DNA of 64,000 bases from Candidatus Latescibacterota bacterium. GTDB lineage: Bacteria > Latescibacterota > UBA2968. Positions 1 through 50,185 of the stretch are shown here, piece after piece. The translations under genes and the position numbers were made by a program. Position 1 is the stretch's first letter. Each line of letters starts with the position of its first letter. Location of the stretch: contig OZ241986.1 in assembly GCA_965204375.1 (NCBI GenBank), forward strand, positions 3,488,001 to 3,552,000, written 5' to 3'. The notes below the pieces were generated by a model that was not told the origin of the DNA, did not search any database, and saw nothing but the letters and a program-made list of their open reading frames with translations.

Positions 1-82
1 CAGACAGGCGGCTAAAACCAGGCCGCTATGACGCATGCCTCGCCCCTACATCCGTGTTCATCCGTGGCTATTTTTGTTTTCA

Positions 83-119
83 CACAGGCGCCTGACGGAG
101 TACACTTATCCGTCGGCGC
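83..119 (+). repeat. 37-nt hairpin motif, copy 1 (candidate cis-regulatory element)
   Basis: CACAGGCGCCTGACGGAGTACACTTATCCGTCGGCGC; 33/37 identical to 2202-2238; stem GACGGA/TCCGTC. Confidence 0.75.
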
Positions 120-164
120 CTATTTTTTATCCAAAAATGTAAATGGGAAGATCCCCTTTTATTT

Positions 165-2147
165 ATGGCCCAATTACAAAGCGTTGAAACTTTAGAGACA
201 GAGAGCCGGGTGCGTAAAACCGCTGTATTGGCTATGGTTGGCACGCTGGTATTCACATGTGCGATGTCAACCTATGTGGAACTGAGCACGCGATCCGGTC
301 TCCTGGCAATGTCCAATCTGCCAATGACCGTATTATTGCCCTTTGTATTCTGGCTCCTGGGCAATTCCGTATTGAAGCGTTTTTGGCCCCGACTGTCCCT
401 GTCCGCAACAGAGATGCGGATACTATTTTGCCTCTTGTGGGTCGGCGGCTTATTTGCCGGTTTTAACTGGGCAACGCAGTGGGCTGGCATGATGGCCGCA
501 CCGCGTTATTTTGCATCGCCAGAGAACCGCTGGGAAGAACTGTACTTTGACGACTTGCCCAATTGGATGCTGCCGTTAAACACTCCGGGTGTGGTCGATG
601 GCTTCTATCAAGGAATATGGTCCGGCGTACCCTGGGGCGCGTGGTTGGGACCGATCTTCTGGGCGGGATCCATCGCCCTTGCAATCACGGCAGTCGGATT
701 GGGATTAACCGCATTATTCCAAAAACAATGGGCGCAACACGAGCGATTGGTCTATCCCCTCGCCGAAGTCTCCCTGGAACTCACCGAAGGATTTGACCGA
801 AAACCGGGTTGGCCTGCCTTTATGCAAAACAAAGCATTTTGGGCGGGATTTTTTATCGCAGCACTCCCCCTCTTGTGGAACATCGCAGAATACTTCATCC
901 CCGATTTTCCCCGCATTGCAATTTTTGACCCCATGTTCGGGCGAACCGGACGCAGAGGGGCACCCCTATCCCGATATTTGCCGCCATTTGCCTTCTCCTA
1001 TCGCATCCTGCCCACGCTGATGGGATTTACTTTTCTGTGCGATCTGAACATCCTGTTCAGCATCTGGTCGGTTTATCTCGTAGGGCTGGGGGCACAATAC
1101 GCCATGAACCGCGTGGGGTTCACAGTGGGAATGAGCGGGCAAGAAGCCGATGCGGGCGTCATAGTAAACCTTTTCTCGAACGGGGCGATGCTGGGACTGG
1201 CTCTCTGGGCAATATGGGCAGCACGCGGGCATCTGAAACGCGTCTGGAGACAGGTTCGCAGTCCAGTTGCAGGAGAAGCCCCCGAAACAATGATCCTGTC
1301 TCCGCGTAGCACTTTGCTGGTGCTTGCAAGTGGATTGCTCTATATGGCATTCTGGCTCTATCAGTCGGGCAACAGCCCATCAACGCTGATATTGTGGATG
1401 GCGGCATTCTGGATCGGCCTTTTTGTATCCATGAAGCTCGTGGCTGCCACTGGCTTCGCCTATTTATTTCCCTTTTGGGCAGGAGGAACAACCATACTGG
1501 GCGATATGTTTGTGGGCACGCGCAATATGTCCACACCCACGCTGGTAAGCACACACATGGTCAATCACCGTTTGCTGGCAGGCTGGCGCGTACCAACGGC
1601 ACTGCCCAATATAGAACGGACCATGGCGAGATCCACTAAGACAAACCGATTGATCTGGATCGGCGTCCTCCTCGGCGTGATCATCGGCGCTTCTTATACA
1701 GTCTGGCTGTGTTATACCTGGGGCGGAGCCAGCTTTCATTCCTGGGCACTGGAAGGTTCTGCACGCGAACGGTACAATATTATTGCCGGAGCGGTTGGCG
1801 ATACAGACCGATCTGTTCCAGACCTGGAAAAAACAGGCGTGTATTTATTGGGCACCCTGGGCGCGCTAATATTTGCCGTACTTCAGGCGAGAATCCCCTG
1901 GTGGCCCCTCCATCCCATGGGATTGATGGTGATGTATAGCTGGTACATGCGCATTTATATTCTGGACATTTTCCTGGTATGGCTGGCCAAATTGCTGGTT
2001 TTGAAATTCGGCGGGATCTTGCTCTACCGGCGGGTGCTCCCGTGTTGTTATGGGTTAATCGTGGGATTTGTATTTGCGATAGGAATCTCATTTCTCGTAG
2101 ATGTGATCTGGTTTCCCGATCAAGGACACGGGGTTCACGGGTGGTAA
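165..2147 (+). CDS. Polytopic inner-membrane protein, DUF6785/DUF6784-like (putative transporter)
   Basis: 660 aa with many hydrophobic helices; motifs YFASPENRW, QWxxHERLxYPL, WWPLHPMG; C-terminal WFPxxGHxVHGW; paralog of 8827-10791. Confidence 0.8.
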   Translation: MAQLQSVETLETESRVRKTAVLAMVGTLVFTCAMSTYVELSTRSGLLAMSNLPMTVLLPFVFWLLGNSVLKRFWPRLSLSATEMRILFCLLWVGGLFAGFNWATQWAGMMAAPRYFASPENRWEELYFDDLPNWMLPLNTPGVVDGFYQGIWSGVPWGAWLGPIFWAGSIALAITAVGLGLTALFQKQWAQHERLVYPLAEVSLELTEGFDRKPGWPAFMQNKAFWAGFFIAALPLLWNIAEYFIPDFPRIAIFDPMFGRTGRRGAPLSRYLPPFAFSYRILPTLMGFTFLCDLNILFSIWSVYLVGLGAQYAMNRVGFTVGMSGQEADAGVIVNLFSNGAMLGLALWAIWAARGHLKRVWRQVRSPVAGEAPETMILSPRSTLLVLASGLLYMAFWLYQSGNSPSTLILWMAAFWIGLFVSMKLVAATGFAYLFPFWAGGTTILGDMFVGTRNMSTPTLVSTHMVNHRLLAGWRVPTALPNIERTMARSTKTNRLIWIGVLLGVIIGASYTVWLCYTWGGASFHSWALEGSARERYNIIAGAVGDTDRSVPDLEKTGVYLLGTLGALIFAVLQARIPWWPLHPMGLMVMYSWYMRIYILDIFLVWLAKLLVLKFGGILLYRRVLPCCYGLIVGFVFAIGISFLVDVIWFPDQGHGVHGW

Positions 2148-2157
2148 TTAAATTTTT

Positions 2158-2188
2158 AAGGGGACCGGATGATCGGTTCCCTTTTTTT
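2158..2188 (+). terminator. Intrinsic terminator
   Basis: AAGGGGACCG...CGGTTCCCTT hairpin followed by a T-run, just after the stop codon. Confidence 0.8.
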
Positions 2189-2201
2189 ATTCAAAAGAAT
2201 C

Positions 2202-2238
2202 CACAGGCGTCTGGCGGAGTACACTCATCCGTCGGCAC
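2202..2238 (+). repeat. 37-nt hairpin motif, copy 2
   Basis: CACAGGCGTCTGGCGGAGTACACTCATCCGTCGGCAC, upstream of the TBDR operon. Confidence 0.75.
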
Positions 2239-2386
2239 ACAACTCGCCCTGGACGTACGGACGCGCTATAACGTCATTTTCGGTTACCTGAGGCCGCATC
2301 TGGCCTGGGGAATTGCTCAGACCTCGTTCTTTCAAATGCTGGACCTGGGCGTGGGTCTGAAATACTATTTTTAAGAGGAGGTTGCA

Positions 2387-5359
2387 ATGAGAAGACTTTC
2401 CTTATTAAGTCCTTTTCTGCTACTCCTGATCTGTCTATGTGCGGGAAATGCCTGGAGCGGTACAACGGGCAAGCTCACCGGCGTGGTATTAGATCAACGT
2501 GGGGAGCCACTTCCCGGCGCCAACGTCGTGATCAAAGAAATGCGGCGGGGCGCGAGCACAGATTCGGAAGGCAGATATTTTATTTTATCCGTAGATCCGG
2601 GCACATACCGGGTAGAAGCATCTCTGGTGGGCTATCAGTCCATCGCACAAGAAGATGTGAAGATGATTGTGGATTTTACCACAACGGTGGATTTTCGCCT
2701 GGAGGAAATGGTACTTGAAGGGGCAGAAATCGTAGTTGTGGCCGAGCGGCCCCTTGTTGAGCCGGACAAGACATCGACCAAATACGTGGTGACCTCCGAG
2801 GAGATCGAGGCATTGCCAATGGTGCGCAGTGCATCCGATTTTGCCGAGTTGCAAGGCGGTGTATCCGTAGATGGCAACTGGACGATCCGCGGTGGAGACG
2901 CGCCGGATGCCGCGGTGATTATCGACGGCGTCCGCCTGGTGAACAACGACCTCAGGGGATTTAACCGGTTTATGGGCGTGAACACCAACGCCATTGAGGA
3001 GTTGCAAGTCATCACCGGTGGGATGGAGGCGGAATACGGCAACGCACAGGCCGGGATTATCCGGATCGTGACGCGAGACGGCAGCAGCACATTGAGGGGC
3101 CTGGTAGAATACCGCAACACGCCGCCTTCTAAAAAGCACTGGGGGCCAAATATCTATGAGCACCCGACCGTACTCCAACAGGACCTGCCGGACAACGCCA
3201 CAAAGCTGGACTACACCAGCACCTTAGGGCATGAAGTAGATTTGAGCCTGTCGGGACCGCTGGTGGGTGGTCTGCAATTTTTTGCCAGCACCAAGTGGGA
3301 CGGCAGGGCACCGCGGTTTCCCGGGCCAACAACGCGGGTGCCGTGGAATACGCAGAACCACATGAAGTTAATCCAGCAGGTCAACCCCAATTTGAAGGTG
3401 CGCGTGGGGGGTCTGTTTGAGCGACACAAAGGCTACAACGGCGATTCCCGCGGCATTGGAAGCAGCTTCCGCAATTTGTACCTGCCCGACGATTTTGCCA
3501 CAGCCGGTCACCGGTGGAACCAGGAAGACATGATTTATTTATCAGCCACGCACACGATCACTTCTCGTACGTTTTACGAAATGCGTCTTTCGCGTTCTCA
3601 CAGCAGCATAGAAACGCAGAATGGCCCGACAGCTACTACAAAGTGGACCAGAAACGGTTATTTCAATATGGACCGCGCCTTTTTCCGCCCAGAGGACTCG
3701 GAGCGGATCCGGTGGAATCTGAAGGCGGACCTGTCCAGCCAGATAACGCGCTCCAACCTGATTAAAACGGGTCTGGATATTACGTATTACAACGTGTGGT
3801 GGACCTGGATTCAGCACGCCACTGAAGCGAACCGCACCATAAGGTTTATCGGCCGGGATCACAACATCGGCGAAGGGGTAAAACCCCTGGAAATAGCCCT
3901 GTACCTGCAGGACCGGATCGAATTTGAAGGCATTGTGCTCAATGCCGGCATCCGGTTGGACCGCTTCGACTTCCGCAGGAACGAACCGCATCCCTACCTG
4001 TGGGGCACCACGCCGATGTACGTGGGCCTGTTGCGCTTCCGCAATGCGCCGACCGAACCGGCCGAGCCGATGATTCGATGGAGCCCGCGCCTGGGCATCT
4101 CCCACCCGATTACCGCAAAGTCAACGCTTCGGTTTTTCTACGGCAAGTTCACCCAGCCGTTGCGATTTGACCACTGGTATCAGGAAGAGTGGGATTCCGG
4201 CACCACAGATGACCGCAATGGAGACGGCGTGGTGCAGGACTACGAATGGGGCAGTGGATATGTCAAGACACAGGGCCTGCTCCACGGGCACTCGGCATTC
4301 GCGCCTTATGAGCAGACCACGAGCTTTGAAGTCGGATTGGACTGGAACTTCGTGAGCGACTACGTGTTGAATCTGACCACGTATTACAAGAGCGCGATTG
4401 ACCAGTCGCGCGCGGGCAGCCAGACCAATTATCGCGATCCATTGAAGAACGGAAAAAACATCGTGGGACCTTCCCACAGGATGGCCGGGTATTCAGAGGA
4501 TAGTCGCGGGTTTGAGGTGAGCCTGAAAAAGCGGTTCTCCCACCACTTCGCCTTCCAGGTGGCATATAACGTGCAGTGGGCCACCGAAGACCAGTCGGGC
4601 TGGCGCGGTGCTTCCGCCTTCCCGGACTCGCTATTTATGGTCAGCGGTCTGTTCTGGCGACAACATACCTACGATCCGAATACCGGTATGGAGACACCCG
4701 TGCCAATGTCCGAATCCGAGATCGCGAAATTCGGCGCTCAGGCGAACAAAACCCTGCGCTCCTGGCAAGCTGGCGAAATCAGCCTCGCACCTTTCCGAAA
4801 GTCCTTCCCCGACCTGATGTACGAAGCGCCCAACGGGGGCAAGATGTGGCTCTTCATGACGCTTTCGGGTGGTCGTGAATCCAGGCCGCGCATCAACGCG
4901 GACCAGCGCGCTTTCGGCAGCATCCAGGTACTGGTATCCACCCCTGCGGACTTCGGCCCGACGCTCGGGAAGATAAAACCCCTGGGCAACTGGCGCTCCA
5001 ATGTCATCTATCGCCTGGATACGGGTACGCCGTTCCAGTATTCGCCCCCCGACGGGCCTACAGTGTGGGCAAATTCCCCGCTGCGGACCCGCACGGACAT
5101 GAGTCTGGAACGCAGTTTCTACATCAACCGCTATGAGGCGGTCTTTTACACGGAAATCAGCAATTTGTTCAACACCCAGGACTTGCGCAACAACAACCTG
5201 TTCGACAACAACCAGCCGCCGTTCGACTGGATGCAGTGGGGTTTGACCACACCGCGTCCGGGCAATGCGAAATTTGAGCAGTACGGAGACGAACTTGTGT
5301 TGAACCGGTATATGGGCGCCCCACGACATGTGGTGCTGGGTTTGAGGGTAAAATTCTAA
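2387..5359 (+). CDS. TonB-dependent receptor with N-terminal carboxypeptidase-regulatory-like domain
   Basis: Signal peptide; GTTGKLTGVV..GEPLPGANVVI; plug motif IRGG..IIDG..AIEELQVITGGMEAEYGNA; WSPRLGISHPIT; terminal Phe; RBS GAGGAGG. Confidence 0.93.
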   Translation: MRRLSLLSPFLLLLICLCAGNAWSGTTGKLTGVVLDQRGEPLPGANVVIKEMRRGASTDSEGRYFILSVDPGTYRVEASLVGYQSIAQEDVKMIVDFTTTVDFRLEEMVLEGAEIVVVAERPLVEPDKTSTKYVVTSEEIEALPMVRSASDFAELQGGVSVDGNWTIRGGDAPDAAVIIDGVRLVNNDLRGFNRFMGVNTNAIEELQVITGGMEAEYGNAQAGIIRIVTRDGSSTLRGLVEYRNTPPSKKHWGPNIYEHPTVLQQDLPDNATKLDYTSTLGHEVDLSLSGPLVGGLQFFASTKWDGRAPRFPGPTTRVPWNTQNHMKLIQQVNPNLKVRVGGLFERHKGYNGDSRGIGSSFRNLYLPDDFATAGHRWNQEDMIYLSATHTITSRTFYEMRLSRSHSSIETQNGPTATTKWTRNGYFNMDRAFFRPEDSERIRWNLKADLSSQITRSNLIKTGLDITYYNVWWTWIQHATEANRTIRFIGRDHNIGEGVKPLEIALYLQDRIEFEGIVLNAGIRLDRFDFRRNEPHPYLWGTTPMYVGLLRFRNAPTEPAEPMIRWSPRLGISHPITAKSTLRFFYGKFTQPLRFDHWYQEEWDSGTTDDRNGDGVVQDYEWGSGYVKTQGLLHGHSAFAPYEQTTSFEVGLDWNFVSDYVLNLTTYYKSAIDQSRAGSQTNYRDPLKNGKNIVGPSHRMAGYSEDSRGFEVSLKKRFSHHFAFQVAYNVQWATEDQSGWRGASAFPDSLFMVSGLFWRQHTYDPNTGMETPVPMSESEIAKFGAQANKTLRSWQAGEISLAPFRKSFPDLMYEAPNGGKMWLFMTLSGGRESRPRINADQRAFGSIQVLVSTPADFGPTLGKIKPLGNWRSNVIYRLDTGTPFQYSPPDGPTVWANSPLRTRTDMSLERSFYINRYEAVFYTEISNLFNTQDLRNNNLFDNNQPPFDWMQWGLTTPRPGNAKFEQYGDELVLNRYMGAPRHVVLGLRVKF

Positions 5360-5398
5360 CGGCGACAATTTGTTGTCTCAATTAAAGGAGGTAGGACA

Positions 5399-7717
5399 AT
5401 GCGATTCAACGCACGTCCAATATTGTGGGGCCTTGCGGTAATGCTCGCGCTAATGCTGTGCGCGCCGAGCATTGTGCAGGCCCAGAGCATGGAATATCTC
5501 AACCGGGGCAAGCTGTGGGATGGCGTGGTTGAGAACGGTGGATCCGGAATGATCTTCAACTACCAGAAGATCTACGAGCGGATCGGCCTGGCCTATCCGG
5601 GCATGCTGCAGTTGAGCGGTTCGTATGGGTCGCGGAGTACCAAATGGTACCAGTCCTCTGGTCAGGGCGTCTGGATTCTCCTGAAAGATGGGGGAACCTA
5701 CGAGGTGTATTCCAGCGGCGGTCCGCGCTACAACAGCGATGGCGTTTTCCAGGTAGATTATCCCGCAGACCAGAAAGAAGAGCAGCATCAGGGCTATGAC
5801 AACCAACCCCTTAGCGACGACGCCTCGCTTTTGGAAACGCACGGCTTGCCGAGTTTTGTACAGCCCAACTACTGGGTAGGCGTGGCGCCGCCGAGTGCGC
5901 GTCCCGTGAATATCCACAACTGGACCTATGGGGAATACGCGACCCCGGATAAGGACAGCTATGGCGAGCAGGTCGTAATCGCCCATTGGCGGGCAGGCGA
6001 TATTCTGGGCACGCGCAAAGGCCGCGTGTGGAGCCATCCGGATTACGACGACTTCATCATATACGAGTTGACATTCGAGAACGTGGGTGACAAACCTTTG
6101 AACGACACGTACTTTGCGATGAACAACATCTTTCGGCCTGCACAGCCCGGACATATCTTCACGGGTGGCTATCCGCTCTGGTATGCCGGAACCAATACGG
6201 CTGCTTATGACGACCACTACAAATACACGGGATCGCCGGGCTATGTGGGGCCTTCAGGCGTATCTGCCGAGGCCATCGCAAAGGCTCGAATGAGCTATAG
6301 CTATGACGGGGATTATCCCCTCAGTCCACACGATGACAGGGGAGAGCCACTGGTCAAATCGCGTGAAGACCCGCGTTATCCACCGCAGATTGACCGCCCC
6401 GAAGGCACCCTGCTGTCGGCCGCGTACATTGGCTTTGCCACCATCGATGCAGATCCCACCGACGGATTTGCCCACGAGCCAGATGCAGCGTCTAAGTACG
6501 TAGCACCCAAAGTGGCAGAACAGCCCGTTTCGGTCAATTGGTACCAGGTGCGCAACCGGTCGGACTACGACGACCCGCACGAAGCGCAGCACTCAGACGA
6601 GCAGATGTACGACATGATCACGTCTCCAACGCCTTCTGACCCCACAGAAGTATCCGCATACGCCCACACCCAGGCCTGGGGACCTTATGACCTGGCACCG
6701 GGCGAGAAAGCCAAGGTGGTGACGGCTTATGTGGCTGCTCAGGCGTCTGGTCACGATAAGTACAAAGGCCAAGTCCAGCCCTACGACTGGTACTGGATGT
6801 TCGAAGGCAAAAAGGACGAAATCGATCTGGGCGAAGAAGTGCTCTTCAAACACCTGGAAAGGGCGCAAAATGCCTACGAACTGGACTACAACGTGCCCAA
6901 TCAGCCGCCAGATGTGTACTTCGAGATCCGCAGCAATGCCGACGGCAACTTTACCGTTAGCTGGTCTGGCGACGTGATGGACGCGCGCGATCCCGACTAC
7001 ACGGGCGCTGAGGCTCAGGACATAGCTGGTTTTCGCGTCTATGTGTCGCGTCAGGCTTTCTTCGGTCCATGGGAACTCGCCGTTGAGGTAAAGACCGATC
7101 CCGTCTCGGGGCCTGTCAACCTGCCCGATGGCGTGACCTATGACAGCGCGACCAACTTCTTCTCCTGGACGGATACCGGGTCCCTGCCCGGCTTTGCCTA
7201 TTGGTACATTGTGCGGGCCTTTGACAAGGGCCACGACCACTGGACAGGCGCCAATGGCAAAACCATGGCCGATCTGCCTCCCGATGTGCAGGACAATGTG
7301 CGCATGGGATTGGAAGGCGGACACAGTTCGCAAAACCAGATCAGCTATCACAACGGCGTCCGCCCCGTGGTGATTTCCAGTTCGGCATTCGACCGCATGG
7401 AAGTGCCAATTCAAGTGGTGCCCAATCCGTTCCATCTGACGGACAAGGCCGGCCACTACAAGGCATCGAAAAATATGCGGTTCACGGGGTTGCCGCGCCA
7501 TGCCCGCATCAGCATCTACTCTATATCGGGCAACTTGATCGTCACCAAAATCCACAACAACGCATCGCAAGGTGAGGCTGTGTGGAACCAGAACACGATG
7601 CATTCGGGCAACGTAACCGAGCGGCTCGGCAGCGGCGTGTATTTCTGGGTGGTGGAGTCCTTAGTTCCGGGCAGTGAAGGCAAAACGCAGACCGGTACAT
7701 TGATGATTATTCGATAA
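5399..7717 (+). CDS. Secreted protein with Fn3-like domain and T9SS-type C-terminal sorting domain
   Basis: Signal peptide; VSWS..GFRVY..YWYIVRAFD; C-terminal VVPNPF..FTGLP..ISIYSISGNLI..GSGVYFWVV..MIIR; RBS AAAGGAGG. Confidence 0.75.
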   Translation: MRFNARPILWGLAVMLALMLCAPSIVQAQSMEYLNRGKLWDGVVENGGSGMIFNYQKIYERIGLAYPGMLQLSGSYGSRSTKWYQSSGQGVWILLKDGGTYEVYSSGGPRYNSDGVFQVDYPADQKEEQHQGYDNQPLSDDASLLETHGLPSFVQPNYWVGVAPPSARPVNIHNWTYGEYATPDKDSYGEQVVIAHWRAGDILGTRKGRVWSHPDYDDFIIYELTFENVGDKPLNDTYFAMNNIFRPAQPGHIFTGGYPLWYAGTNTAAYDDHYKYTGSPGYVGPSGVSAEAIAKARMSYSYDGDYPLSPHDDRGEPLVKSREDPRYPPQIDRPEGTLLSAAYIGFATIDADPTDGFAHEPDAASKYVAPKVAEQPVSVNWYQVRNRSDYDDPHEAQHSDEQMYDMITSPTPSDPTEVSAYAHTQAWGPYDLAPGEKAKVVTAYVAAQASGHDKYKGQVQPYDWYWMFEGKKDEIDLGEEVLFKHLERAQNAYELDYNVPNQPPDVYFEIRSNADGNFTVSWSGDVMDARDPDYTGAEAQDIAGFRVYVSRQAFFGPWELAVEVKTDPVSGPVNLPDGVTYDSATNFFSWTDTGSLPGFAYWYIVRAFDKGHDHWTGANGKTMADLPPDVQDNVRMGLEGGHSSQNQISYHNGVRPVVISSSAFDRMEVPIQVVPNPFHLTDKAGHYKASKNMRFTGLPRHARISIYSISGNLIVTKIHNNASQGEAVWNQNTMHSGNVTERLGSGVYFWVVESLVPGSEGKTQTGTLMIIR

Positions 7718-7735
7718 TGAGGAGGAGGCCAGGAC

Positions 7736-8725
7736 ATGAAAAGAAATACCCTCTTAATCGGACTGATTGTGGCCCTTATGGCTGGGCTTTCGGCCCCTCC
7801 TGTATTGGCCGAAGAAGTCAAGTCCGGTTTTCGGCGCACGGCATCTACCGGCTTTGGATTCCTGCTGGTGGGGCAAAGCGCGCGAGCCACGGCGATGGGC
7901 GAAGCCTATATACCTATCGCCAACGATATCAACGCGATTTTCTGGAATCCCGCGGGGCTGGTCGCCATCGAGCGCGGGGCTTTTTCCGCTACGTACACGC
8001 GCTGGCTGGTCAACTCGAAGCTGTATTCGGGTGCCGTGTCTTACAATATTCCATTCGGGACATTGGGCGTCAGCGTCATTTCGTTTGCACCTGAGCAATT
8101 TGAAGAGACCACGATCTTTGAGCCACAGGGCACGGGAGAGATGGTCAACGGCAATGGCACGGCGCTGGGGCTCGTATTTGCCAAGCGCCTGACCAATAAA
8201 TTGTCGTTTGGGCTGGAGGTGCGCTACTTGCAGCAGAACCTGCACAGAGAACAGATTACCCACATCGACTTCGGGGTATCCAGCATGTTTGCCACGGGCT
8301 TTGCCAGCAGCCGCATCGGCATGTCGCTGAAAAACTTCGGAGCAGACAAAGCCGTCGTGACCGATGACCCATTTCGGATGCCAATGGTGTTCAATTTTGG
8401 CGCTGCCATGGAAATTATCGGCAATTTGGGCGATCCGGTCTCATTGACATTATCGCTGGTAAATGCCTATAATCTGGAGGTAGAAAAAGAGCAATTCAGA
8501 ATAGGCACAGAATTGTGGTTACAAAATATGCTGGCTCTGCGCGCGGGCTATAAGTTCGACAAAGGTCTCTTTGGGTTCAACAGAGATATCTATAGCTGGT
8601 CTATCGGCGCGGGAGTCAAGCAGAGCTTCGCAGGGCGAAGTCTCGCAGTTGACTTCTCGTATGCGGCCGTGGAGGAAGTCGCGTTTTCCGCGCCGCTGCG
8701 ATTGACCCTTAGTGGAACATTCTGA
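7736..8725 (+). CDS. PorV/PorQ-family outer-membrane beta-barrel
   Basis: GFGFLLVGQSARATAMGEAY..NAIFWNPAGL signature; ALRAGYKF; terminal Phe. Confidence 0.88.
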   Translation: MKRNTLLIGLIVALMAGLSAPPVLAEEVKSGFRRTASTGFGFLLVGQSARATAMGEAYIPIANDINAIFWNPAGLVAIERGAFSATYTRWLVNSKLYSGAVSYNIPFGTLGVSVISFAPEQFEETTIFEPQGTGEMVNGNGTALGLVFAKRLTNKLSFGLEVRYLQQNLHREQITHIDFGVSSMFATGFASSRIGMSLKNFGADKAVVTDDPFRMPMVFNFGAAMEIIGNLGDPVSLTLSLVNAYNLEVEKEQFRIGTELWLQNMLALRAGYKFDKGLFGFNRDIYSWSIGAGVKQSFAGRSLAVDFSYAAVEEVAFSAPLRLTLSGTF

Positions 8726-8757
8726 TGCGCTCATTGGCATAAAGCCCACGCATTTCT

Positions 8758-8795
8758 GGCGGCGGTCCAGCGAGGATAGGGCCGCCGCCTTTTTT
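8758..8795 (+). terminator. Intrinsic terminator
   Basis: GGCGGCGGTCC...GGGCCGCCGCC followed by TTTTTT. Confidence 0.85.
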
Positions 8796-8826
8796 ATTAA
8801 GTCGGCTCGATATTAAAGGATCTGCC

Positions 8827-10791
8827 GTGGCGATTTCCGAACGCACAACTGAGGCACCAGAAACAGTTGTAGAACCCCAGGGAGTGACGCTCAGAGCCTT
8901 TATTCTGGCGATGATCACAATTGCAGGGGTGTGTATTTTCGCGACTTATTACGGGCGAAATTTGATGAAAAGTTTTTTGCCCGTAACCGCATTACTGCCC
9001 CTCGTGGTGTGGATCGGGATAAACACCGCGTTAAAACTAACAGCGCCCCGATTCGCCCTATCGCGCAGCGAAGTAGTGACCATTTTTGGGATCGTGTGGA
9101 TGGTATCTACGGTACCCGCAATCGGATGGGTGGGGTATTTAATCACGGATATTTCGGCACCCGCGGCCTTTTCATCACCCGAAAACCGATTCTGGGAAGT
9201 AGCGGGTCAGTACCTGCCTCGATGGTTATTTATGGATCGGGGAAGCGAAGTGGTAGAGCGGCTATACGTGGGATTGGGGCACAGAGATGAGATTCCCTGG
9301 GCGCACTGGGTCGTCCCGCTGTTCTGGTGGTTTGTGGGGAGTCTATCTCTGGTACTGGCCGGATTTTTTGCCAGCGTACTATTCTACAAACAGTGGCTGA
9401 TGCACGAGCGCCTGTCCTTTCCCCTCGCTGCCGTACCTCTGGCGCTTTTGGAAGAATCCGAGGGAAGCCGGGTTCCCGATGTATTCAAAGACTGGGTTTT
9501 CTGGGCCGGGTTTGCGTGTACAGCCGGCGTGATTTTCTGGAATATCACCGGCTATTTTGTCCTGACATTGCCCCGCATCACGATCTACGACCACTGGCTG
9601 ACCACAGCGGTAGATACGGGACAGTATATTCCCACCATCTATTTGCGCATTCACCCCCTGATGATGGGTCTGGCCTATTTGTGCCCGCTGAATATATTGA
9701 TGAGTTTCTGGTTTTTTTTCCTCGTCAATGCGTTTAAGATGACAGTGATGAACCGCACGGGCTTTACCATCGGGTTGCAGGGCCAGACAGCCGCGCCCGA
9801 AGAGATTTTGATGCTGGAGGCGCACGGCGCACTGGTTTTTCTCGTTCTCTGGTCAGTATGGGTGGCCCGAGATCACTTGAAAGAGACGCTACACAAGGCT
9901 TTCGGAGACCTGCGCTCACAAGACGACGGGGTGCCCGTATCCTATCGCACAGCCTGGCTGGGATTTTTAAGTGCCACAATTTTTTTCACCGGTTTTTTGC
10001 TCTCAATGGGCATCAGCCTACCCTCGGCAATGGTGCAGATGGGCCTGCTATTCGTCATCTACCTCGGCGTAACCAAATTTGCGGCAGCCACGGGCTACGT
10101 GTTCCTCGCGCCCCAGGGAGAAAAAGGGTGGCAGATTATGAAGGCCCTCTACGGGACATTAAATATTTCGAGCCGGGATTTGACGGGTTTGATAGTGGTG
10201 AGCCGAAACGCGCTCGCCGGAGCGCCAGCCCGAATGCTATCTGTGCCAGCAATTCCCCATTTTTTTAAGCTCCTGGGCAATGGGCTGCAGCGTTCCTGGG
10301 CTATCGTGGGTGTGTTGCCCGTTGCCCTCCTGGGGGCATTTGCAGTGGCCTGTGCCGCACAGCTCTATCTGTGTTACATGGAAGGCGGATTGAATCATGC
10401 CTATATGCCCGACTGGCGACACATGGTCAGGCAAGTGTCGCTGATTGAAGGGACACAGCCAGCGTATTTCGACCTGGACAAAACCATAGTGTGGTTTTTG
10501 GGTATTGCCGAGGCGGGATTATTGACGCTCTTGGGCATGCGGTACGCGGCCTGGCCAATTCACCCGTTCGGTCTGGCTTTTCCAGACAACCGATTTCGCT
10601 ATGGATTTGGGATATTCATCGTATGGCTGGCCAAGTCATTGACATTGCGCTTTGGCGGGGTGAGCCTCTACCGGCGATCACTGCCATTTTGGTATGGTAT
10701 TGTGGTGGGATATCTGGTGGGAGTGGGAGCTTCGACAGTAGTAGATGCGATCTGGTTTCCATTGAACCGACATTTTGTACACGGATGGTAA
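8827..10791 (+). CDS. Polytopic inner-membrane protein, DUF6785/DUF6784-like (paralog 2)
   Basis: 654 aa; FSSPENRFW, KQWLMHERLSFPL, WPIHPFG, WFPLNRHFVHGW; GTG start with AAAGGA RBS. Confidence 0.8.
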   Translation: MAISERTTEAPETVVEPQGVTLRAFILAMITIAGVCIFATYYGRNLMKSFLPVTALLPLVVWIGINTALKLTAPRFALSRSEVVTIFGIVWMVSTVPAIGWVGYLITDISAPAAFSSPENRFWEVAGQYLPRWLFMDRGSEVVERLYVGLGHRDEIPWAHWVVPLFWWFVGSLSLVLAGFFASVLFYKQWLMHERLSFPLAAVPLALLEESEGSRVPDVFKDWVFWAGFACTAGVIFWNITGYFVLTLPRITIYDHWLTTAVDTGQYIPTIYLRIHPLMMGLAYLCPLNILMSFWFFFLVNAFKMTVMNRTGFTIGLQGQTAAPEEILMLEAHGALVFLVLWSVWVARDHLKETLHKAFGDLRSQDDGVPVSYRTAWLGFLSATIFFTGFLLSMGISLPSAMVQMGLLFVIYLGVTKFAAATGYVFLAPQGEKGWQIMKALYGTLNISSRDLTGLIVVSRNALAGAPARMLSVPAIPHFFKLLGNGLQRSWAIVGVLPVALLGAFAVACAAQLYLCYMEGGLNHAYMPDWRHMVRQVSLIEGTQPAYFDLDKTIVWFLGIAEAGLLTLLGMRYAAWPIHPFGLAFPDNRFRYGFGIFIVWLAKSLTLRFGGVSLYRRSLPFWYGIVVGYLVGVGASTVVDAIWFPLNRHFVHGW

Positions 10792-10803
10792 TGGAGGTGT
10801 GTC

Positions 10804-13293
10804 ATGGTGCGTTTTGTGTTTCTGATGATACTGATATTCTCTTCAGCAACGGCCTTTGCCACGACCGAAACAGATTCTCTAACCGCCCTGGGTGAACAGC
10901 AGATGGCGACTGGCTTATTCGAGGCAGCAGTCGAGACATTTGTCCAATTGGCCAGAGCCAAACCCGAAGATGTCGAGGTGCAAACGCAACTGGGGTATGC
11001 GTATTTGAAGGCGAAAAATTACGAAGCTGCCGAAAAGGCTTTTAAGGCAGCCAAGAAACTGGACAAGACCTTTGTCCCCGCCTATGTCGGGCTGGGGATG
11101 GCCTATGTGGAAGGACCGGCAAAGGGTTTGGAAGCCGTGTATCACTTTCGACGCGCAGTGGGCGAGGCCAAACGGGCGACCAAACTCGATCCGAATTACG
11201 CGCCAGCCTATCGACTTCTGAGCGAACTCTACGAACGGTTTCGAGAGGACCGCGAAAAGGCGATCACATACTATTTGCAATACCTCAAACTGGAGCCAGA
11301 CAACCCGACGGGACTTTATCCTTTCGGGCTGGTCTGCATTCAGGCTGGGCAATACGACAAAATCGAGCGGTATATCATCCCCTATCTGAAGACCCATCCC
11401 GACGCCATCCAACTTTTACCTCTGGCTGCTCAGAGCTACTTTTTTCTCGAACATTACGAAGCAGCACTGGAACATTTTGAGCGTTATTTGCAGCACCAGG
11501 ACGAGGAGGAGCGGGCGCATTATACCGATATTTTTCTCGTGGCCTCTGGAAAAGAGCGACAGGCATATCAGGCTCTGTCCGACGAAGGCGAGCGCCAGGC
11601 TTATCTAAAAGGGTTCTGGAGGCGGCGGGACCCCGATATTTTGACCGGAATCAACGAGCGGATCATTGAACACTATCGCCGTGTGTGGTACGCGCGGACG
11701 TTTTTCTCCAAATACGAGCAACCCTGGGACAAGCGTGGGGAGGTCTATATCCGCTATGGAGAACCCGATCACCGCGCCCGGTCTCTCGAGCGGCAGGTGC
11801 GTGTAAGCCCAGAGGTCGAGGCAGTGCGCACACAGATGGCGGTAGATATGTACGGCCCAGAAGCCGCGTACCTGACGTTTAGCGGTCCGGTTTTTCCGGT
11901 AAAGGTGCAGCGCGATCCCTATAGCATCAGCGTGACATTCAACGCGCCAGACGAATTGCTCGAAGCCACGCTGGCCCGTCCAGGAGGGCAAACGCCCGAA
12001 TCAAATATGGACGAAGAGGACGATGTGCTGGTGACGCAGGCAGAACAGGGGGGTCTGGAGAGTCTCGAAGCCCAGGTATTTCAGGACGTACCCGGCGAAT
12101 CGGAATTTGTGAACCAGCGCAACGACGCATGGCGGGTGAATCCCCGGTTCGGGTTTGAAGATTACGCGCCCGTAACACTCGACTCAGAATTTCAGGCAGT
12201 ACCCTGGGAAGCATGGACCTATACCCAACTCGGACGCGGTGTGGAATTCACCTTTACCGACGAACTGTCCAGCGGCCGATTTGAATTTGCCCCAATGCCA
12301 ACCACACCCACAGGAGAACGGGTCATCAGCAAAGTCGGGCGCCTGACCGAACACGCCCCAGCAGTGATGTTCGAACGGGTCCAGGACGAGACGCCCGATT
12401 ATTACCGCCCGGGAATAGGCAAAGCTCCGCTGCACTTTTTTTACGACCTGGCCTCTTTTCGGGGCCCCGGCGAGCAGACCACGCTGGAAGTCTATTACGG
12501 CGTACCGCCAGGAGAAGTGAAAATCGGACAGGCGGAAGAACAGGACTATATCCGGGTACAGGCGGCATTGGCACTGGCCGACGCGGGCCATACCCATATT
12601 TACAGAGAAGCCGAGGTCTTTTTGTACGAACGCCCCCAAAACGAGGGGTTCAGCCGGGCAAAAGGCGTATTTGTGCCCGATGTATTGACCCTGAATATTC
12701 CGCCGGGAGAATACGAACTTCAGGTACAACTCAAAGATATGAATTCTGGACGGGTGGGGCTTTATAAACAGGCCGTAGATGTACGGGATTATACGTCGCA
12801 GGCACTTCAAATTAGCGATATTGAACTGGCTTATGACATCGGCGAGAAGCCGTCGAATACCCGGTTTTTGAAGGAGGACATCTGGGTCGTGCCAATGCCT
12901 TCTCGAGCGTATGCCGGATCGCAAAAGGTTTACGTCTATTTTGAACTCTACAATTTGAAACAGGACGCATTTGGGCAGACCCGCTATAAAGTGCAATATC
13001 TGGTTCGATACAACCCCAGGGCCATATCTGGCATTCTGGGTTCGGTCGCCACGGGACTGAGCGCGTTTATCAAATACCGCAAACCGCAGGTATCCGTCAG
13101 TTATGAACAGGTGGGCACAGATACGCGCACGCGCGAATACGTCGAACTGGATTTGCAGAAGGTCAAGCGCGGGGTGAATGTGCTGGAGATACAGATTACG
13201 GATCTCGTGAGCGGTGAACAAACCAGCAGAGCGGTGAGTTTTCAATATGGAAAACAGAGCGAGGAGGATAAACAGAAAATTGCACAGGAGTGA
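10804..13293 (+). CDS. TPR-repeat / GWxTD-domain secreted protein
   Basis: Signal peptide; N-terminal TPRs; FWRRRDP..NERIIEHYRRVWYA..PWDKRGEVYIRYGEPD (variant of the GWxTDRG motif). Confidence 0.85.
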   Translation: MVRFVFLMILIFSSATAFATTETDSLTALGEQQMATGLFEAAVETFVQLARAKPEDVEVQTQLGYAYLKAKNYEAAEKAFKAAKKLDKTFVPAYVGLGMAYVEGPAKGLEAVYHFRRAVGEAKRATKLDPNYAPAYRLLSELYERFREDREKAITYYLQYLKLEPDNPTGLYPFGLVCIQAGQYDKIERYIIPYLKTHPDAIQLLPLAAQSYFFLEHYEAALEHFERYLQHQDEEERAHYTDIFLVASGKERQAYQALSDEGERQAYLKGFWRRRDPDILTGINERIIEHYRRVWYARTFFSKYEQPWDKRGEVYIRYGEPDHRARSLERQVRVSPEVEAVRTQMAVDMYGPEAAYLTFSGPVFPVKVQRDPYSISVTFNAPDELLEATLARPGGQTPESNMDEEDDVLVTQAEQGGLESLEAQVFQDVPGESEFVNQRNDAWRVNPRFGFEDYAPVTLDSEFQAVPWEAWTYTQLGRGVEFTFTDELSSGRFEFAPMPTTPTGERVISKVGRLTEHAPAVMFERVQDETPDYYRPGIGKAPLHFFYDLASFRGPGEQTTLEVYYGVPPGEVKIGQAEEQDYIRVQAALALADAGHTHIYREAEVFLYERPQNEGFSRAKGVFVPDVLTLNIPPGEYELQVQLKDMNSGRVGLYKQAVDVRDYTSQALQISDIELAYDIGEKPSNTRFLKEDIWVVPMPSRAYAGSQKVYVYFELYNLKQDAFGQTRYKVQYLVRYNPRAISGILGSVATGLSAFIKYRKPQVSVSYEQVGTDTRTREYVELDLQKVKRGVNVLEIQITDLVSGEQTSRAVSFQYGKQSEEDKQKIAQE

Positions 13294-13304
13294 TTGTACT
13301 GAGG

Positions 13305-13343
13305 TGGTTGGGCACCCAAGGGCACGGGATTCACGGGTGGTAA
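13305..13343 (+). pseudogene. 3-prime remnant of a third DUF6785-like gene
   Basis: Encodes WLGTQGHGIHGW* versus WFPDQGHGVHGW* at the end of 165-2147; CAAGGGCACGGGATTCACGGGTGGTAA closely matches 2121-2147. Confidence 0.8.
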
Positions 13344-13351
13344 TTGCTGTA

Positions 13352-13678
13352 CTACAGCTTGACACAATCTAACCTCAGCCGAAACCCCAAGGCGGAAATA
13401 ATAGCCATCAGATTGTCGAGCTTTGGTTTGCTGCGACTTGAAAGCACGCGATAGAGATGTTCGCGGTTCAATCCGGCGCGTTCTGCCAACGCACCAACCC
13501 CACCTTGTGCCTGGGCGACATCGCGCAAGGCCAATAACAGCCCATCCGTCTCCCCACTTGCTTCACACTCATCCAGTGCCACTTCCAGATAAGCCCGAGC
13601 ATCTTCGGGATCTTTAAGAGCTTCTATCAGCCCTTCTTCATAACTGACCGTGTGTTTCAAAACCTGTTTTTTAGTCAT
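13352..13678 (-). CDS. Addiction-module antidote protein, HI1420 family (orphan)
   Basis: ARAYLEVAL..LLLALRDVAQAQGGVGALAERAGLNREHLYRVLS HTH signature. Confidence 0.88.
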   Translation of the reverse strand: MTKKQVLKHTVSYEEGLIEALKDPEDARAYLEVALDECEASGETDGLLLALRDVAQAQGGVGALAERAGLNREHLYRVLSSRSKPKLDNLMAIISALGFRLRLDCVKL

Positions 13679-13686
13679 TTTTAGAA

Positions 13687-13704
13687 TGTAGCGTACACGC
13701 TACA
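13687..13704. promoter_or_regulatory. Palindromic operator upstream of the antidote gene
   Basis: TGTAGCGT-AC-ACGCTACA perfect inverted repeat 8 nt from the ATG. Confidence 0.7.
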
Positions 13705-13715
13705 AAAAATAAACG

Positions 13716-13754
13716 AAAAAAATGAACGGGACTCAATGGTTCAAGCCCCGTTCA
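13716..13754 (-). terminator. Intrinsic terminator after the ECF sigma gene
   Basis: Minus strand TGAACGGGGCTT...GAGTCCCGTTCA followed by T-run. Confidence 0.8.
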
Positions 13755-13772
13755 CACTGACTGGATCCTATT

Positions 13773-14930
13773 TTAATGCAAGTGACGGAAACGAAGATCC
13801 CTGAAAGCTGTTTTGCATTCCCATACATTCAGCGCAATCGGTCCCGATTGATAGCTGAAATCCGTCACCTGATTGATCAGCTTGCCATCAATATATGAAG
13901 TAAGAGATGCGCCTCGGGCGGCGATTTGCACATCGTATTCCTGTCCATGCTCAATGGGATAGTTGACCACACTGAGCTTGGTTAGCCCCTCAGGCGTAAC
14001 TTTGCTAATGGCGACAGCCTGCCAGCCCAATAAGAAATCCAACAAATACCAGCACCGTTCGTCTTCGGACATCCGGAAGAAAACCTGAGCATTGCCGCCT
14101 GAAATGGGCGTGATGAGAAGAGACAGTTCATAACTTCCCCAGGAAGAGTCACCTATAATAAGCGGAGAACTGTAATCACTTGAGGGGTCTGCTTCACCCA
14201 CGATACCATCATCCGTACGCGTCCAAACGCGATGCAAAGACGCTTCGGTATGTCCCTTTGCGGGTCGCCAATCTGCCAATCCATCGCCCTGGATCAATTT
14301 CTCCCAGTGGATAACCCCTCTCATTCCACCAATGACTCTGCGCCCGTAATCTTCCTGATTTTCCTGATCTACAAGTGTTCCATTTCCCATGACTAAAAGC
14401 CTCCTTTTTAGTTGTTTCCGCGATCTATGTAACCGACTTTTGACAGTACCCACTGGAATACCAAGGATACTGGCAATCTGATCCTGACGTAATCCGACCA
14501 GATAAAACAGCGTAGTAACCATCCGATCCGCTGGGGCGAGCAATGCAAAAGCCCGCTTCAGAGCAGATGCGTACTGCGGCTCCACCGTTTTTTCAGGATG
14601 CACAAACTCGAGCTGTTGATATTCCTGCACCCTTGATAATCCCCGCGCCTCAAGGGTTCGCTTTCTCACCCATTTGAGAGCCACATTGCGCGCAATGGTA
14701 TAAAGCCAGGATGAGAATTTGCCAACATCATCGAGTTGGTTGAGATTCCGATAGGCAAGAATAAATGTCTCTTGCGTGGCATCTTCGGTATCATCAGCAT
14801 CTTGCAGCACAGCCCATATAACTCCAAACACCAGAGATCGGTGCTGGTTAATCAGATCGGCAAATGCCCGCTCATCGCCACCACAGGCTTTATCAACCAG
14901 GGTCTTATCGCCTGATAATGAATCATTCAT
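13773..14930 (-). CDS. ECF sigma-70 factor with C-terminal DUF1080-like (beta-jelly-roll) extension
   Basis: Region 2 DTEDATQETFI..FSSWLY; region 4 IASILGIPVGTVKSRLHR; C-terminal GLADW..W....GIVG..GPIAL..FRDLR; start moved to ATG 14930 (GGAG RBS). Confidence 0.85.
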   Translation of the reverse strand: MNDSLSGDKTLVDKACGGDERAFADLINQHRSLVFGVIWAVLQDADDTEDATQETFILAYRNLNQLDDVGKFSSWLYTIARNVALKWVRKRTLEARGLSRVQEYQQLEFVHPEKTVEPQYASALKRAFALLAPADRMVTTLFYLVGLRQDQIASILGIPVGTVKSRLHRSRKQLKRRLLVMGNGTLVDQENQEDYGRRVIGGMRGVIHWEKLIQGDGLADWRPAKGHTEASLHRVWTRTDDGIVGEADPSSDYSSPLIIGDSSWGSYELSLLITPISGGNAQVFFRMSEDERCWYLLDFLLGWQAVAISKVTPEGLTKLSVVNYPIEHGQEYDVQIAARGASLTSYIDGKLINQVTDFSYQSGPIALNVWECKTAFRDLRFRHLH

Positions 14931-14960
14931 CAGAGTACTCCGATACGCGCGTTCATACAA

Positions 14961-14986
14961 TAGATTCAGTTTTTGACAGAAGGTTC
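14961..14986 (-). promoter_or_regulatory. ECF-type (probably autoregulatory) promoter
   Basis: Minus strand GAACCT-N16-TCTA, resembling the sigmaE consensus GAACTT-N16-TCTRA. Confidence 0.65.
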
Positions 14987-15022
14987 ACGAATTTTTCACA
15001 ACTAACGTTTCTCTACGATCAA

Positions 15023-15140
15023 GTGTTCATTTTCGGACACCACTGTATCAAAATCGGACACTTTATAAGACCCTAATTTCAGGTAATTTTCGTAACCTAT
15101 TGTTATATCAATATTTGACTTTTCTGGCATAATTTTTGCT
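15023..15140 (+). promoter_or_regulatory. sigma54 promoter module, copy 1: two enhancer-like dyads, IHF-like site, -24/-12 box
   Basis: GTGTTCATTTTCGGACAC (15023-15040), TGTATCAAAATCGGACA (15044-15060), TAACCTATTGTTA, TGGCATA-ATTT-TTGCT (15125-15140); repeated at 47382-47499. Confidence 0.85.
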
Positions 15141-15193
15141 TCATAATTGTATAACCCATAGTACTTACCTCTCAATAGAGACGGAGGCCCGAT

Positions 15194-17629: not shown

Positions 17630-17704
17630 ACGACTCAGGAATTCGCTTAAAAAAAAGAATGAACACCAATGAACAGTACTGAGTCCTCCAAAGGAGACAT
17701 TACG

Positions 17705-20134: not shown

Positions 20135-20163
20135 ATAACCAACGCTTCAAGATGGGGGGCAAA

Positions 20164-22575: not shown

Positions 22576-22587
22576 AAGGAGGATGTG

Positions 22588-30475: not shown

Positions 30476-30560
30476 ATGATTTTAGAAGTTGCAATATTGG
30501 GTGAAGCCAGGGCGTGAGCAGGAATTTGAAACTGCTTTTGGCAAGGCGCAAAAAATTATA
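30476..30560 (+). pseudogene. Frameshifted 5-prime remnant of an antibiotic-biosynthesis-monooxygenase (ABM) gene
   Basis: MILEVAIL / VKPGREQEFETAFGKAQKII across a frameshift; AAAGGA RBS. Confidence 0.7.
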
Positions 30561-30579
30561 TGGCGTAAGGAGAAAGATC

Positions 30580-33785: not shown

Positions 33786-33804
33786 GAGAAAAGTGAGGTG
33801 TGCT

Positions 33805-46320: not shown

Positions 46321-46420
46321 ACCGGGAATCAGAGAAAACGACATAATGGGGTTGGTTTGTATGATTCGGATTCCCTCTTCTATCCCTGGATCTCACCCCT
46401 ATTCTATTCGATGATCTCAA

Positions 46421-46621
46421 ATGCCGCTCATTAAAAATCAGGATATTCGCATCTGTTATGAAGTTGTTGGAGAGGCCGATTCATTTATGTTCGACGCTGT
46501 GAAACGCGGGGCCGGTCAAATCCCCGAAGCAAAATTGGTCATTATTCCAGGTCTTGATCACGGACAAGCATACGCTGATAGTCGCCTGATTTTACCTCAT
46601 GTGAGGGACTTTCTGCGTTAA
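46421..46621 (+). pseudogene. Alpha/beta hydrolase with large internal deletion
   Basis: N-terminus MPLIKNQDIRICYEVVGE fused to C-terminus ..IPEAKLVIIPGLDH..HVRDFL; no nucleophile motif. Confidence 0.7.
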
Positions 46622-46667
46622 ATATGTGAAATTAGGATGGCGCATGTTGGTATATGGCGAAATACCT

Positions 46668-47366: not shown

Positions 47367-47381
47367 GATCCCCTCCTCTTA

Positions 47382-50100: not shown

Positions 50101-50185
50101 TTGTTCTTGGGCTGCATCGGTGGGCATATCCTCCTCGGACAGACACACTGAATCACCTGCGCCCAACACTCAGTGAGAGGCACCA

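Follow-up and report, generated by a model that had tools for sequence, protein, structure and literature searches.

A recurrent TonB-dependent receptor locus of Latescibacterota encoding a family-less secreted protein and a PorV/PorQ-like barrel: a possible SusD-less nutrient-uptake module

Background

Polymer capture in Bacteroidota is explained by SusC/SusD pairs encoded in polysaccharide utilization loci (PULs). The way in which TonB-dependent receptors (TBDRs) are supplied in other phyla belonging to the FCB (Fibrobacteres-Chlorobi-Bacteroidetes) superphylum is largely unknown, although sediments, soils and the ocean all harbour such phyla in abundance, Latescibacterota, Marinimicrobia and KSB1 among them. 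The locus described here is found at the left end of a stretch of 64,000 nucleotides (denominated the window) of contig OZ241986.1, from a Candidatus Latescibacterota bacterium. It encodes a TBDR, a secreted protein lacking a known family (protein X) and an outer-membrane barrel of the PorV/PorQ family, flanked by two DUF6785 membrane proteins and a GWxTD protein. The relatives of this locus make up a recurrent module, and the window locus may be, at about even confidence, one rearranged and possibly crippled copy of a SusD-less, PUL-like module of Latescibacterota for the capture and import of nutrients.

Like PULs, the module features a TBDR with a carboxypeptidase-regulatory-like domain and a plug beside a dedicated secreted partner, is present in many paralogous copies per genome, and has variable catabolic enzymes and an inner-membrane transporter nearby. 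Unlike PULs, it lacks SusD, and the window TBDR fails the SusC/RagA model. The partner X is not a lipoprotein, carries a C-terminal domain (CTD) resembling those of the T9SS (type IX secretion system), and is accompanied by its own PorV/PorQ-like barrel and usually by a small outer-membrane protein (OMP) barrel. The inner-membrane transporter of the module is similar to oligopeptide transporter (OPT) proteins, and not to the major facilitator superfamily.

Cargo proteins paired to outer-membrane barrels are known from T9SS. PorZ, placed on PorQ, and PorU, placed on PorV, both retain the CTD. The module barrel belongs to the same family as the barrels of the PorV-CTD, PorU-PorV and PorZ-PorQ pairs, and the CTD of X weakly resembles the retained CTD of PorZ. 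Unlike PorV and PorQ, the module barrel is multi-copy, and each copy adjoins its own cargo; the barrel of the window has 329 aa, against the 402 aa of the solved PorV chain, and scores below the equivalog cut-offs. Type B CTD cargo proteins and their cognate PorP/SprF-like barrels (SprB-SprF, PG1035-PorP) are encoded side by side, and the barrel is thought to be a surface holder (PMC9143113, PMC12618676). X and its barrel are similarly encoded by neighbouring genes, and most of the family CTDs scanned are recognised by CHU_C, a type B model. In contrast to type B pairs, the module barrel is of the PorV/PorQ family, the PorP/SprF model TIGR03519 being touched by 1 of 18 representatives (E 3e-4). 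The X-barrel pair is moreover embedded in a TBDR operon, and the host, a member of the FCB superphylum, is outside Bacteroidota.

The third group of related proteins is that of the OPT/Yellow Stripe-like transporters (TC 2.A.67). The predicted model of the DUF6785+DUF6784 protein superposes full length on barley Yellow Stripe 1, but sequence identity is 11-12%. Published descriptions of the TBDR-X-PorV-like module, DUF6785, GWxTD proteins or a Latescibacterota T9SS were not found in a search that left subscription journals outside. The one Latescibacteria genomics paper retrieved in which TonB is dealt with speaks of B12 and iron import only (PMC4454575). The module looks like a combination of TBDR nutrient loci and T9SS-type cargo/anchor pairs, and appears undescribed.

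Gene order around protein X

The six long genes of the locus are all on the plus strand. The TBDR and X genes are 39 nt apart, and 18 nt separate X from the PorV-like gene, which is followed by a hairpin with a U run (Table 1). A three-gene operon closed by a terminator, as proposed in the first-pass annotation of the window, is therefore present. The terminator scan alone caught only the inner 5 pairs of the stem, and folding gave 11 bp. According to HMM (hidden Markov model) searches, the window hosts no copies of X, PorV-like, DUF6785 or small OMP genes beyond those listed in Table 1.

Relatives of the locus were collected by searching a genome collection with an alignment of the X family. 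The search yielded 132 relatives, and 80 loci were kept; open reading frames (ORFs) were called in these, and labelled by phmmer with the six window proteins. Most loci (72/80) come from entries labelled Latescibacter*, the remainder from Marinimicrobia or Neomarinimicrobiota (3), Gemmatimonadota (3), "Cytophagia" (1) and "uncultured bacterium" (1). Of the 84 full-length X genes, 77 are immediately preceded by a TBDR gene and immediately followed by a PorV-like gene, all three sharing one strand. The synteny of the triplet, which had been left to be surveyed, is thus strongly conserved, and the gene order is not due to chance, as it recurs around 77/84 related X genes. A DUF6785 gene is found within 10 kb downstream of 53 of the 77 triplets. 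GWxTD genes are found at the same distance in 29/77, and all these 29 triplets feature DUF6785 as well. At 80% identity, the proteins fall into 20 (X), 19 (TBDR) and 18 (PorV-like) clusters. Single chromosomes host several copies, 7 of the kept loci being found in OZ244960.1, 7 in OZ253501.1 and 8 in OX638317.1; as copy numbers these counts are lower bounds, with 52 of the 132 relatives left out.

A gene encoding a small OMP beta-barrel (about 231 aa, PF13505) is found directly upstream of the TBDR gene in 69/72 loci. The 3 loci missing it are all of the Marinimicrobia type. The canonical module is hence made of small OMP barrel, TBDR, X and PorV/PorQ-like barrel, often followed by DUF6785 and GWxTD genes. 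The same module is found in metagenome-assembled genomes (MAGs) labelled Marinimicrobia and Gemmatimonadota.

Loci of the Marinimicrobia type (L025, L028, L055, L011) vary in organization. The small OMP slot is occupied by a gene for a protein of about 330 aa, in which a canonical Por_Secre_tail is recognised at 43.3 and 40.4 bits (cut-off 27). Downstream are found a sodium:solute symporter family (SSF) gene, which takes the place of DUF6785, a glycerophosphodiester phosphodiesterase (GDPD) gene, a ceramidase-like gene and a second copy of X, devoid of TBDR and PorV-like partners of its own.

Seven X genes are exceptions to the common order. Three are second X copies, in L011, L025 and L028. 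In L061, L062 and L074 a shorter TBDR is encoded 3' of X; in L061 (9881-16099), and likewise in the other two, X is followed by a TBDR of 865 aa with carboxypeptidase-regulatory and plug domains and by a DUF4249 protein, and no PorV-like gene is nearby. In L070, X is associated with a PorV-like gene only. The same locus hosts, at 291-7391, a module of a second kind, formed by a TBDR with a PF00593 barrel, a family-less protein of 1037 aa with an X-type CTD, and a PorV-like barrel. The pairing of CTD and barrel seems a conserved principle, because in L070 an unrelated cargo carrying the same type of CTD occupies the X slot.

Coevolution of the three proteins was sought by comparing distance matrices of 74 triplets. 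Pearson coefficients of 0.97-0.99 were driven by groups of orthologues, and have been discarded. Among divergent pairs Spearman coefficients were 0.55 for X and PorV-like and 0.35 for X and TBDR, and the nearest paralogue agreed with that of X in 31/74 (PorV-like) and 33/74 (TBDR). The comparison is not used as evidence of coevolution, because adjacent genes share their history anyway.

The barrel and the CTD of X

The barrel encoded in the window matches the PorV/PorQ family model NF033709 at residues 38-326, with 163.4 bits against a cut-off of 90, and the earlier assignment to the PorV family is borne out at this level. NF033709 is matched by all the 18 PorV-like representatives, and is the best model for each. 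The family profile finds Flavobacterium johnsoniae PorV (6h3i_F) at E 5.7e-26. The window barrel is neither PorV proper (NF033710, 72.2 vs 250 bits) nor PorQ proper (NF033711, 54.2 vs 220 bits).

The complex of barrel residues 26-329 and the X CTD was predicted with ipSAE values of 0.85, 0.86 and 0.84, the best of three controls reaching 0.38. In calibration, 116 of 157 solved complexes attained the ipSAE mark, against 2 of 215 mismatched pairs. At least 78% of the contacts agree between runs, and the partner pLDDT is at least 70. An interface between CTD and PorV-like protein, on which the first-pass annotation depended, is therefore predicted, and modelling supports the X CTD as a binder of the barrel. 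The pass denotes likeness and is not a proof of binding, because PorV-CTD complexes have already been solved. In the solved complexes the CTD is bound by extracellular loops of PorV, and Asn87 and Phe115 of PorV are among the contacts reported (PMC10994853). The best supported contacts on the module barrel involve residues 91-94 and 117-127. Placed via profile alignment, and not by superposition, these would fall roughly at the sites of PorV Asn87 and Phe115. The barrel is a putative dedicated anchor, or shuttle, of X.

The CTD of the window protein was also scored with models of known signals. Type A models give 16.7 vs 23 bits (TIGR04183) and 16.5 vs 27 bits (PF18962), and do not assign it to type A; the type B model PF13585 CHU_C gives 21.2 vs 27 bits. 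When CTDs of the family were scanned alone, CHU_C was matched in 16/19 (E <= 1, best E 4.2e-7), and PF18962 in 11/19, below threshold (best 0.003). When whole X proteins were scanned, the C-terminus of the PorZ model was matched in 9/30 (best 1.7e-5), and TIGR04183 in 5/30, again below threshold. The T9SS-type CTD attributed to the secreted protein is consistent family-wide, but the claim is sub-threshold for the window protein taken alone.

Protein X

X has a signal peptide. In the alignment of the family a lipobox cysteine is not conserved, and X is therefore not a SusD-like lipoprotein. A profile search of 1.84 billion representatives retrieved 579 X relatives at E <= 1e-30, a count that rises to 3171 at E <= 1e-10, and no Pfam family was assigned to 34 of 38 distant relatives sampled. 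By sequence, X is a representative of a large uncharacterised family. Its own cluster is seen on other contigs at 96% identity.

In an AlphaFold2 (AF2) model from 14 sequences, X would begin with a mostly-beta N-terminal region of about 470 aa and a long helix, after which come an FN3-like domain and the CTD. Foldseek comparison to the PDB returned FN3/Ig sandwiches and the N-terminal sandwich of GH94 phosphorylases only (TMq <= 0.17); the model gives no function, as these are generic sandwiches. Sequence comparison to solved structures gave nothing useful (E 0.28 and 0.35). In the ESM Atlas the N-terminal region found "hypothetical protein" clusters only, from Zixiibacteriota, Bacteroidota and Fidelibacterota (scores 0.93-0.94). 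N174, E190 and D217 are conserved in the N-terminal region across paralogues about 30% identical, and D218, D271, D272, D303 and D313 are found in at least 90%.

The TonB-dependent receptor

The TBDR features a signal peptide, a carboxypeptidase-regulatory-like N-terminal domain, a plug and a putative barrel ending in RVKF. The plug is matched by PF07715 at residues 129-223 (38.1 bits, cut-off 23.9). The SusC/RagA model TIGR04056 scores 59.4 vs 368.25 bits and covers residues 29-234 only, so that the protein is not assigned to this family. About 770 aa follow the plug, a length compatible, together with the terminal RVKF, with a barrel. The architecture is shared by homologues, several of which, at 33-37% identity, carry PF00593 or PF25183. 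A candidate TonB box, read from the sequence only, is the tract EIVVVAER, placed after the N-terminal domain and before the plug.

DUF6785 and GWxTD proteins

The two membrane proteins of about 655 aa noted earlier as paralogues have 660 and 654 aa, share 34% identity and score above the Pfam cut-offs for both DUF6785 (25) and DUF6784 (26.4). The AF2 model of the second, obtained from 60 sequences, is of high quality (pLDDT 90, pTM 0.90). Foldseek found one significant match, barley Yellow Stripe 1 of the OPT family (E 5.5e-9, TM 0.60/0.65, 687 columns), the next being at E 0.078 and TM 0.11. The expected resemblance to a transporter fold is hence found. It is by fold only, as the Pfam OPT model matches none of the DUF6785 proteins at E <= 0.01. 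The OPT family is made of proton-coupled transporters, whose substrates are oligopeptides, glutathione and metal chelates. By analogy, DUF6785 proteins are suggested to be proton-coupled importers of peptides or chelates.

Genes encoding gamma-glutamyltranspeptidase are located between, or beside, triplet and DUF6785 gene in L033, L079 and L053. Since some OPT transporters carry glutathione, these neighbours make gamma-glutamyl peptides a candidate, and they may be one class of substrates.

The GWxTD protein, described earlier as a TPR (tetratricopeptide repeat)-GWxTD protein, is confirmed as such by TIGR04514 (55.9 vs 28 bits), and falls just under the cut-off of Pfam PF20094 (25 vs 26.9 bits). 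Its profile matches solved structures of the PDB by the TPR part only, and in the ESM Atlas GWxTD clusters only were found.

Enzymes encoded near the module

Pfam families were sought in 145 of 146 ORFs selected near the module in 20 representative loci, leaving out one ORF antisense to X in L079. Among the neighbours are sulfatases, FGE-sulfatase, heparinase II/III-like and alginate-lyase-like proteins, GH38 and GxGYxYP proteins. S15 and M20 peptidases and gamma-glutamyltranspeptidase are found as well, as are GFO/IDH/MocA and PhyH enzymes, ceramidase-like, GDPD and DUF1800/DUF1501 proteins. The enzymes differ from one module to the other, as they do in PULs. No SusD family member was found among the nine proteins of 165-17629, nor among the 145 neighbouring ORFs. 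Scans with family models of 1-17629 agree with the earlier remark that neither SusD nor a glycoside hydrolase is recognisable.

Rearrangement of the window copy

Four close relatives of the window locus (L001-L004), all from Candidatus Latescibacterota MAGs or chromosomes, encode X proteins 95-97% identical to that of the window, and are 93-96% identical at the DNA level. In all four, the orthologue of gene 1, which encodes the first DUF6785 protein, sits downstream of the GWxTD gene. In the window a tract corresponding to the last 28-29 nt of this gene is still found at that place. It is 100% identical to the 3' terminus of the orthologue in L004 as well as in L002, whereas identity to positions 2121-2149 of the window is 93%. 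The annotation of a remnant of a third membrane paralogue was right in that a real remnant of 28-29 nt exists, but there is no third paralogue, and the tract is the footprint of relocated gene 1. Sequence comparison indicates that gene 1, formerly downstream of the GWxTD gene, was relocated upstream of the TBDR gene. It lies between direct repeats of 35 nt (83-117 and 2202-2236), 91% identical.

Comparison with L001 (stretches 2736-2880, 6831-18021 and 18207-20195) shows that about 4 kb are gone from the window, and with them an ORF of 515 aa, a sulfatase gene and most of the small OMP gene. The stump of the latter was recognised by an HMM built from 9 upstream OMPs, in the frame 1940-2371 and at model positions 178-231. 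The terminator of gene 1 is now about 200 nt upstream of the TBDR gene. None of the six large frames is interrupted or shortened. The rearrangement is either a real recombination or an assembly chimera.

Discussion

The first-pass interpretation is partly supported, and was refuted by none of the three checks run on it, namely synteny, the interface of CTD and barrel, and the fold of DUF6785. The features described may be those of a nutrient-uptake system in which the partner of the TBDR is held by a barrel. X would be exported by Sec and reach the surface via a T9SS-type route. It would stay there non-covalently, through a CTD gripped by extracellular loops of the cognate PorV/PorQ-like barrel, and would capture or process substrate beside the TBDR. 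The substrate would then enter through the TBDR with TonB energy, and cross the inner membrane by way of the OPT-like DUF6785 protein, whose fold is that of a proton-coupled secondary transporter. Each paralogous module would serve a different substrate, as in PULs. Gene content, order and multiplicity, the family of the barrel and the transporter fold are observed. The contact between X and TBDR, the direction of transport and the identity of the substrate are, like the surface location of X, inferred, and X may act, by analogy with SusD, as a lid on the TBDR.

Several findings weigh against this interpretation. Neither DUF6785 nor GWxTD is found within 10 kb of 24/77 triplets, and the window locus hosts no catabolic enzyme. 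The AF2 model of X is mediocre (pLDDT 62.9, pTM 0.62), and neither a binding-protein nor an enzyme fold was obtained for it. The CTD of the window protein is below every curated cut-off, and the CTD profile found no solved CTD among known structures (E 1.7). The success of the CTD-barrel prediction may reflect memory of solved PorV-CTD structures. No Pfam barrel model matches the window TBDR at E <= 0.01, and no solved structure is matched by its sequence at E <= 0.001. T9SS core genes are missing in the window and in the flanks (no real ORF of at least 1300 aa is found); the whole genome was not searched. Finally, the window copy lacks the small OMP and lies behind a strong terminator, and may be poorly expressed or defective; the TBDR unit may be impaired because the terminator is directly upstream and the usual first gene is lost.

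X could alternatively be a T9SS-secreted surface enzyme, or a glycan or peptide binder comparable to SusG or SusE/F, located near the TBDR and unbound to it, the PorV-like protein being a shuttle only. This is rather unlikely. Acidic, aromatic and His residues invariant across paralogues about 30% identical would fit a catalytic or metal site, and type B cargo proteins with cognate shuttles are on record (PMC12618676). However, no enzyme fold was found, and 34/38 distant relatives lack a Pfam family. The same residues are moreover kept in spite of very different neighbour enzymes, which argues for a structural or partner-binding role and not for one in the chemistry of the substrate.

It is improbable that the TBDR-like barrel is instead a private, TonB-powered outer-membrane translocon of X, handing the CTD to the PorV-like barrel in a T9SS-independent unit dedicated to one cargo. 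The 1:1:1 ratio of TBDR, X and PorV-like genes in 77/84 cases would fit, whereas classical T9SS cargo proteins share one translocon and one PorV, and the lack of T9SS core genes in the window and flanks, in a genome not searched, would fit as well. Myxococcus Oar, a TBDR with the same type of N-terminal domain, is reportedly necessary for secretion of a protease. Plug and overall architecture are nevertheless those of an importer, and the linked inner-membrane transporters (DUF6785, SSF) and catabolic enzymes fit uptake. Por_Secre_tail proteins beside Marinimicrobia-type modules (43.3 and 40.4 vs 27 bits) indicate that an ordinary T9SS is probably present there. If true, such a translocon would count as a minimal relative of T9SS, or as its forerunner, being cargo-specific, working without SprA and present many times per genome.

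Little credit is given to the view of the window copy as a locus in decay, or wrongly assembled, that has no present function and is an uninformative instance of a real family. The truncated small OMP, the loss of about 4 kb found in L001, the footprint left by the moved DUF6785 gene and the terminator 200 nt before the TBDR gene speak for it; the six large frames are complete and uninterrupted, DNA identity to relatives is 93-96%, and the X cluster is found on other contigs at 96% identity, all of which speak against. Least credible of all, and very improbable, is a PorV-like barrel working as a FadL-type channel for hydrophobic or amphipathic substrates, with the X CTD as a generic Ig-like sandwich and the genes linked otherwise: a weak match to Toluene_X/FadL (E 5.2e-6, 25.6 vs 29.7 bits), a FilD model touched by 2/18 representatives, and the ceramidase-like and GDPD genes of some loci are outweighed by the PorV/PorQ model, which scores best in all 18 representatives, by the CTD/barrel prediction, which passes controls, and by CTD matches specifically to T9SS signal models.

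If the uptake module held by a PorV/PorQ-like barrel is real, it would provide a recognisable and countable PUL marker for FCB phyla other than Bacteroidota, and would add nutrient uptake to the secretion role of PorV/PorQ-type barrels. The X family, the OPT-like DUF6785/DUF6784 importers and GWxTD proteins would receive roles open to testing, and the evolution of T9SS would be tied to TonB-dependent transport. Besides being widespread and multi-copy, the module lends itself to direct testing.

Features of the locus and of the surrounding window

Table 1. Coordinates in the window of the genes, domains and signals of the locus
Feature	Position	Strand	Evidence or remark
Gene 1, DUF6785+DUF6784 membrane protein, 660 aa	165-2147	+	Pfam 253.6 + 68.3 bits
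Intrinsic terminator 3' of gene 1	2158-2183	+	11-pair stem, T run
Stump of small OMP beta-barrel gene, last ~54 codons	2210-2374	+	HMM E 2.3e-22
Gene 2, TBDR, 990 aa	2387-5359	+	CarboxypepD_reg PF13620 66.1 bits, Plug PF07715 38.1 bits
Gene 3, protein X, 772 aa	5399-7717	+	signal peptide; zero Pfam families above cut-off
C-terminal domain of X, 105 aa, T9SS-CTD-like	7400-7714	+	family-wide matches to CTD models
Gene 4, PorV/PorQ-family outer-membrane barrel, 329 aa	7736-8725	+	NF033709 163.4 bits, cut-off 90
Intrinsic terminator closing the TBDR-X-PorV-like unit	8758-8797	+	11-bp G+C stem then UUUUUUAUU
Gene 5, DUF6785+DUF6784 paralogue, 654 aa	8827-10791	+	Pfam 274.7 + 49 bits
Gene 6, TPR + GWxTD protein, 829 aa, signal peptide	10804-13293	+	TIGR04514 55.9 bits, cut-off 28
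Footprint, last 28-29 nt of the DUF6785 gene of gene 1	13317-13345	+	reads ...GHGIHGW-stop

The six genes fall in the interval 165-13343. A perfect match (12/12) to a sigma-70-type promoter (TTGACA, 18 nt, TATAAT) is found at 8444-8473 (+), inside the 3' part of the PorV-like gene; the consensus may not be that of Latescibacterota. Located about 350 nt upstream of gene 5, the match could act internally as the promoter of genes 5-6.

Two genes are convergent with the locus. The first (13352-13678, minus strand) encodes an addiction-module antidote of the helix-turn-helix type, for which no toxin partner is visible. The second (13773-14960, minus strand) encodes an extracytoplasmic function (ECF) sigma factor fused to a concanavalin-type domain similar to 3-keto-disaccharide hydrolases. 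The ECF sigma gene adjoins the locus in L004 too, and its product is a possible regulator.

Farther on, two arrays (15194-24948 and 43921-52552) host seven genes for duplicated FtsX/MacB-type permeases of the ADOP family, of about 800 aa each, and no ATPase partner was noticed. The G+C content drops to 0.40-0.43 at 18-20 kb. An IS200/IS605-type TnpB (26058-27182), an ankyrin-repeat protein of 436 aa (30514-31824), an IS1595 transposase (33793-34770) and a MADS3-like defence ATPase (56160-57260) are also encoded, and the central part of the window has the look of an island of mobile or defence genes.

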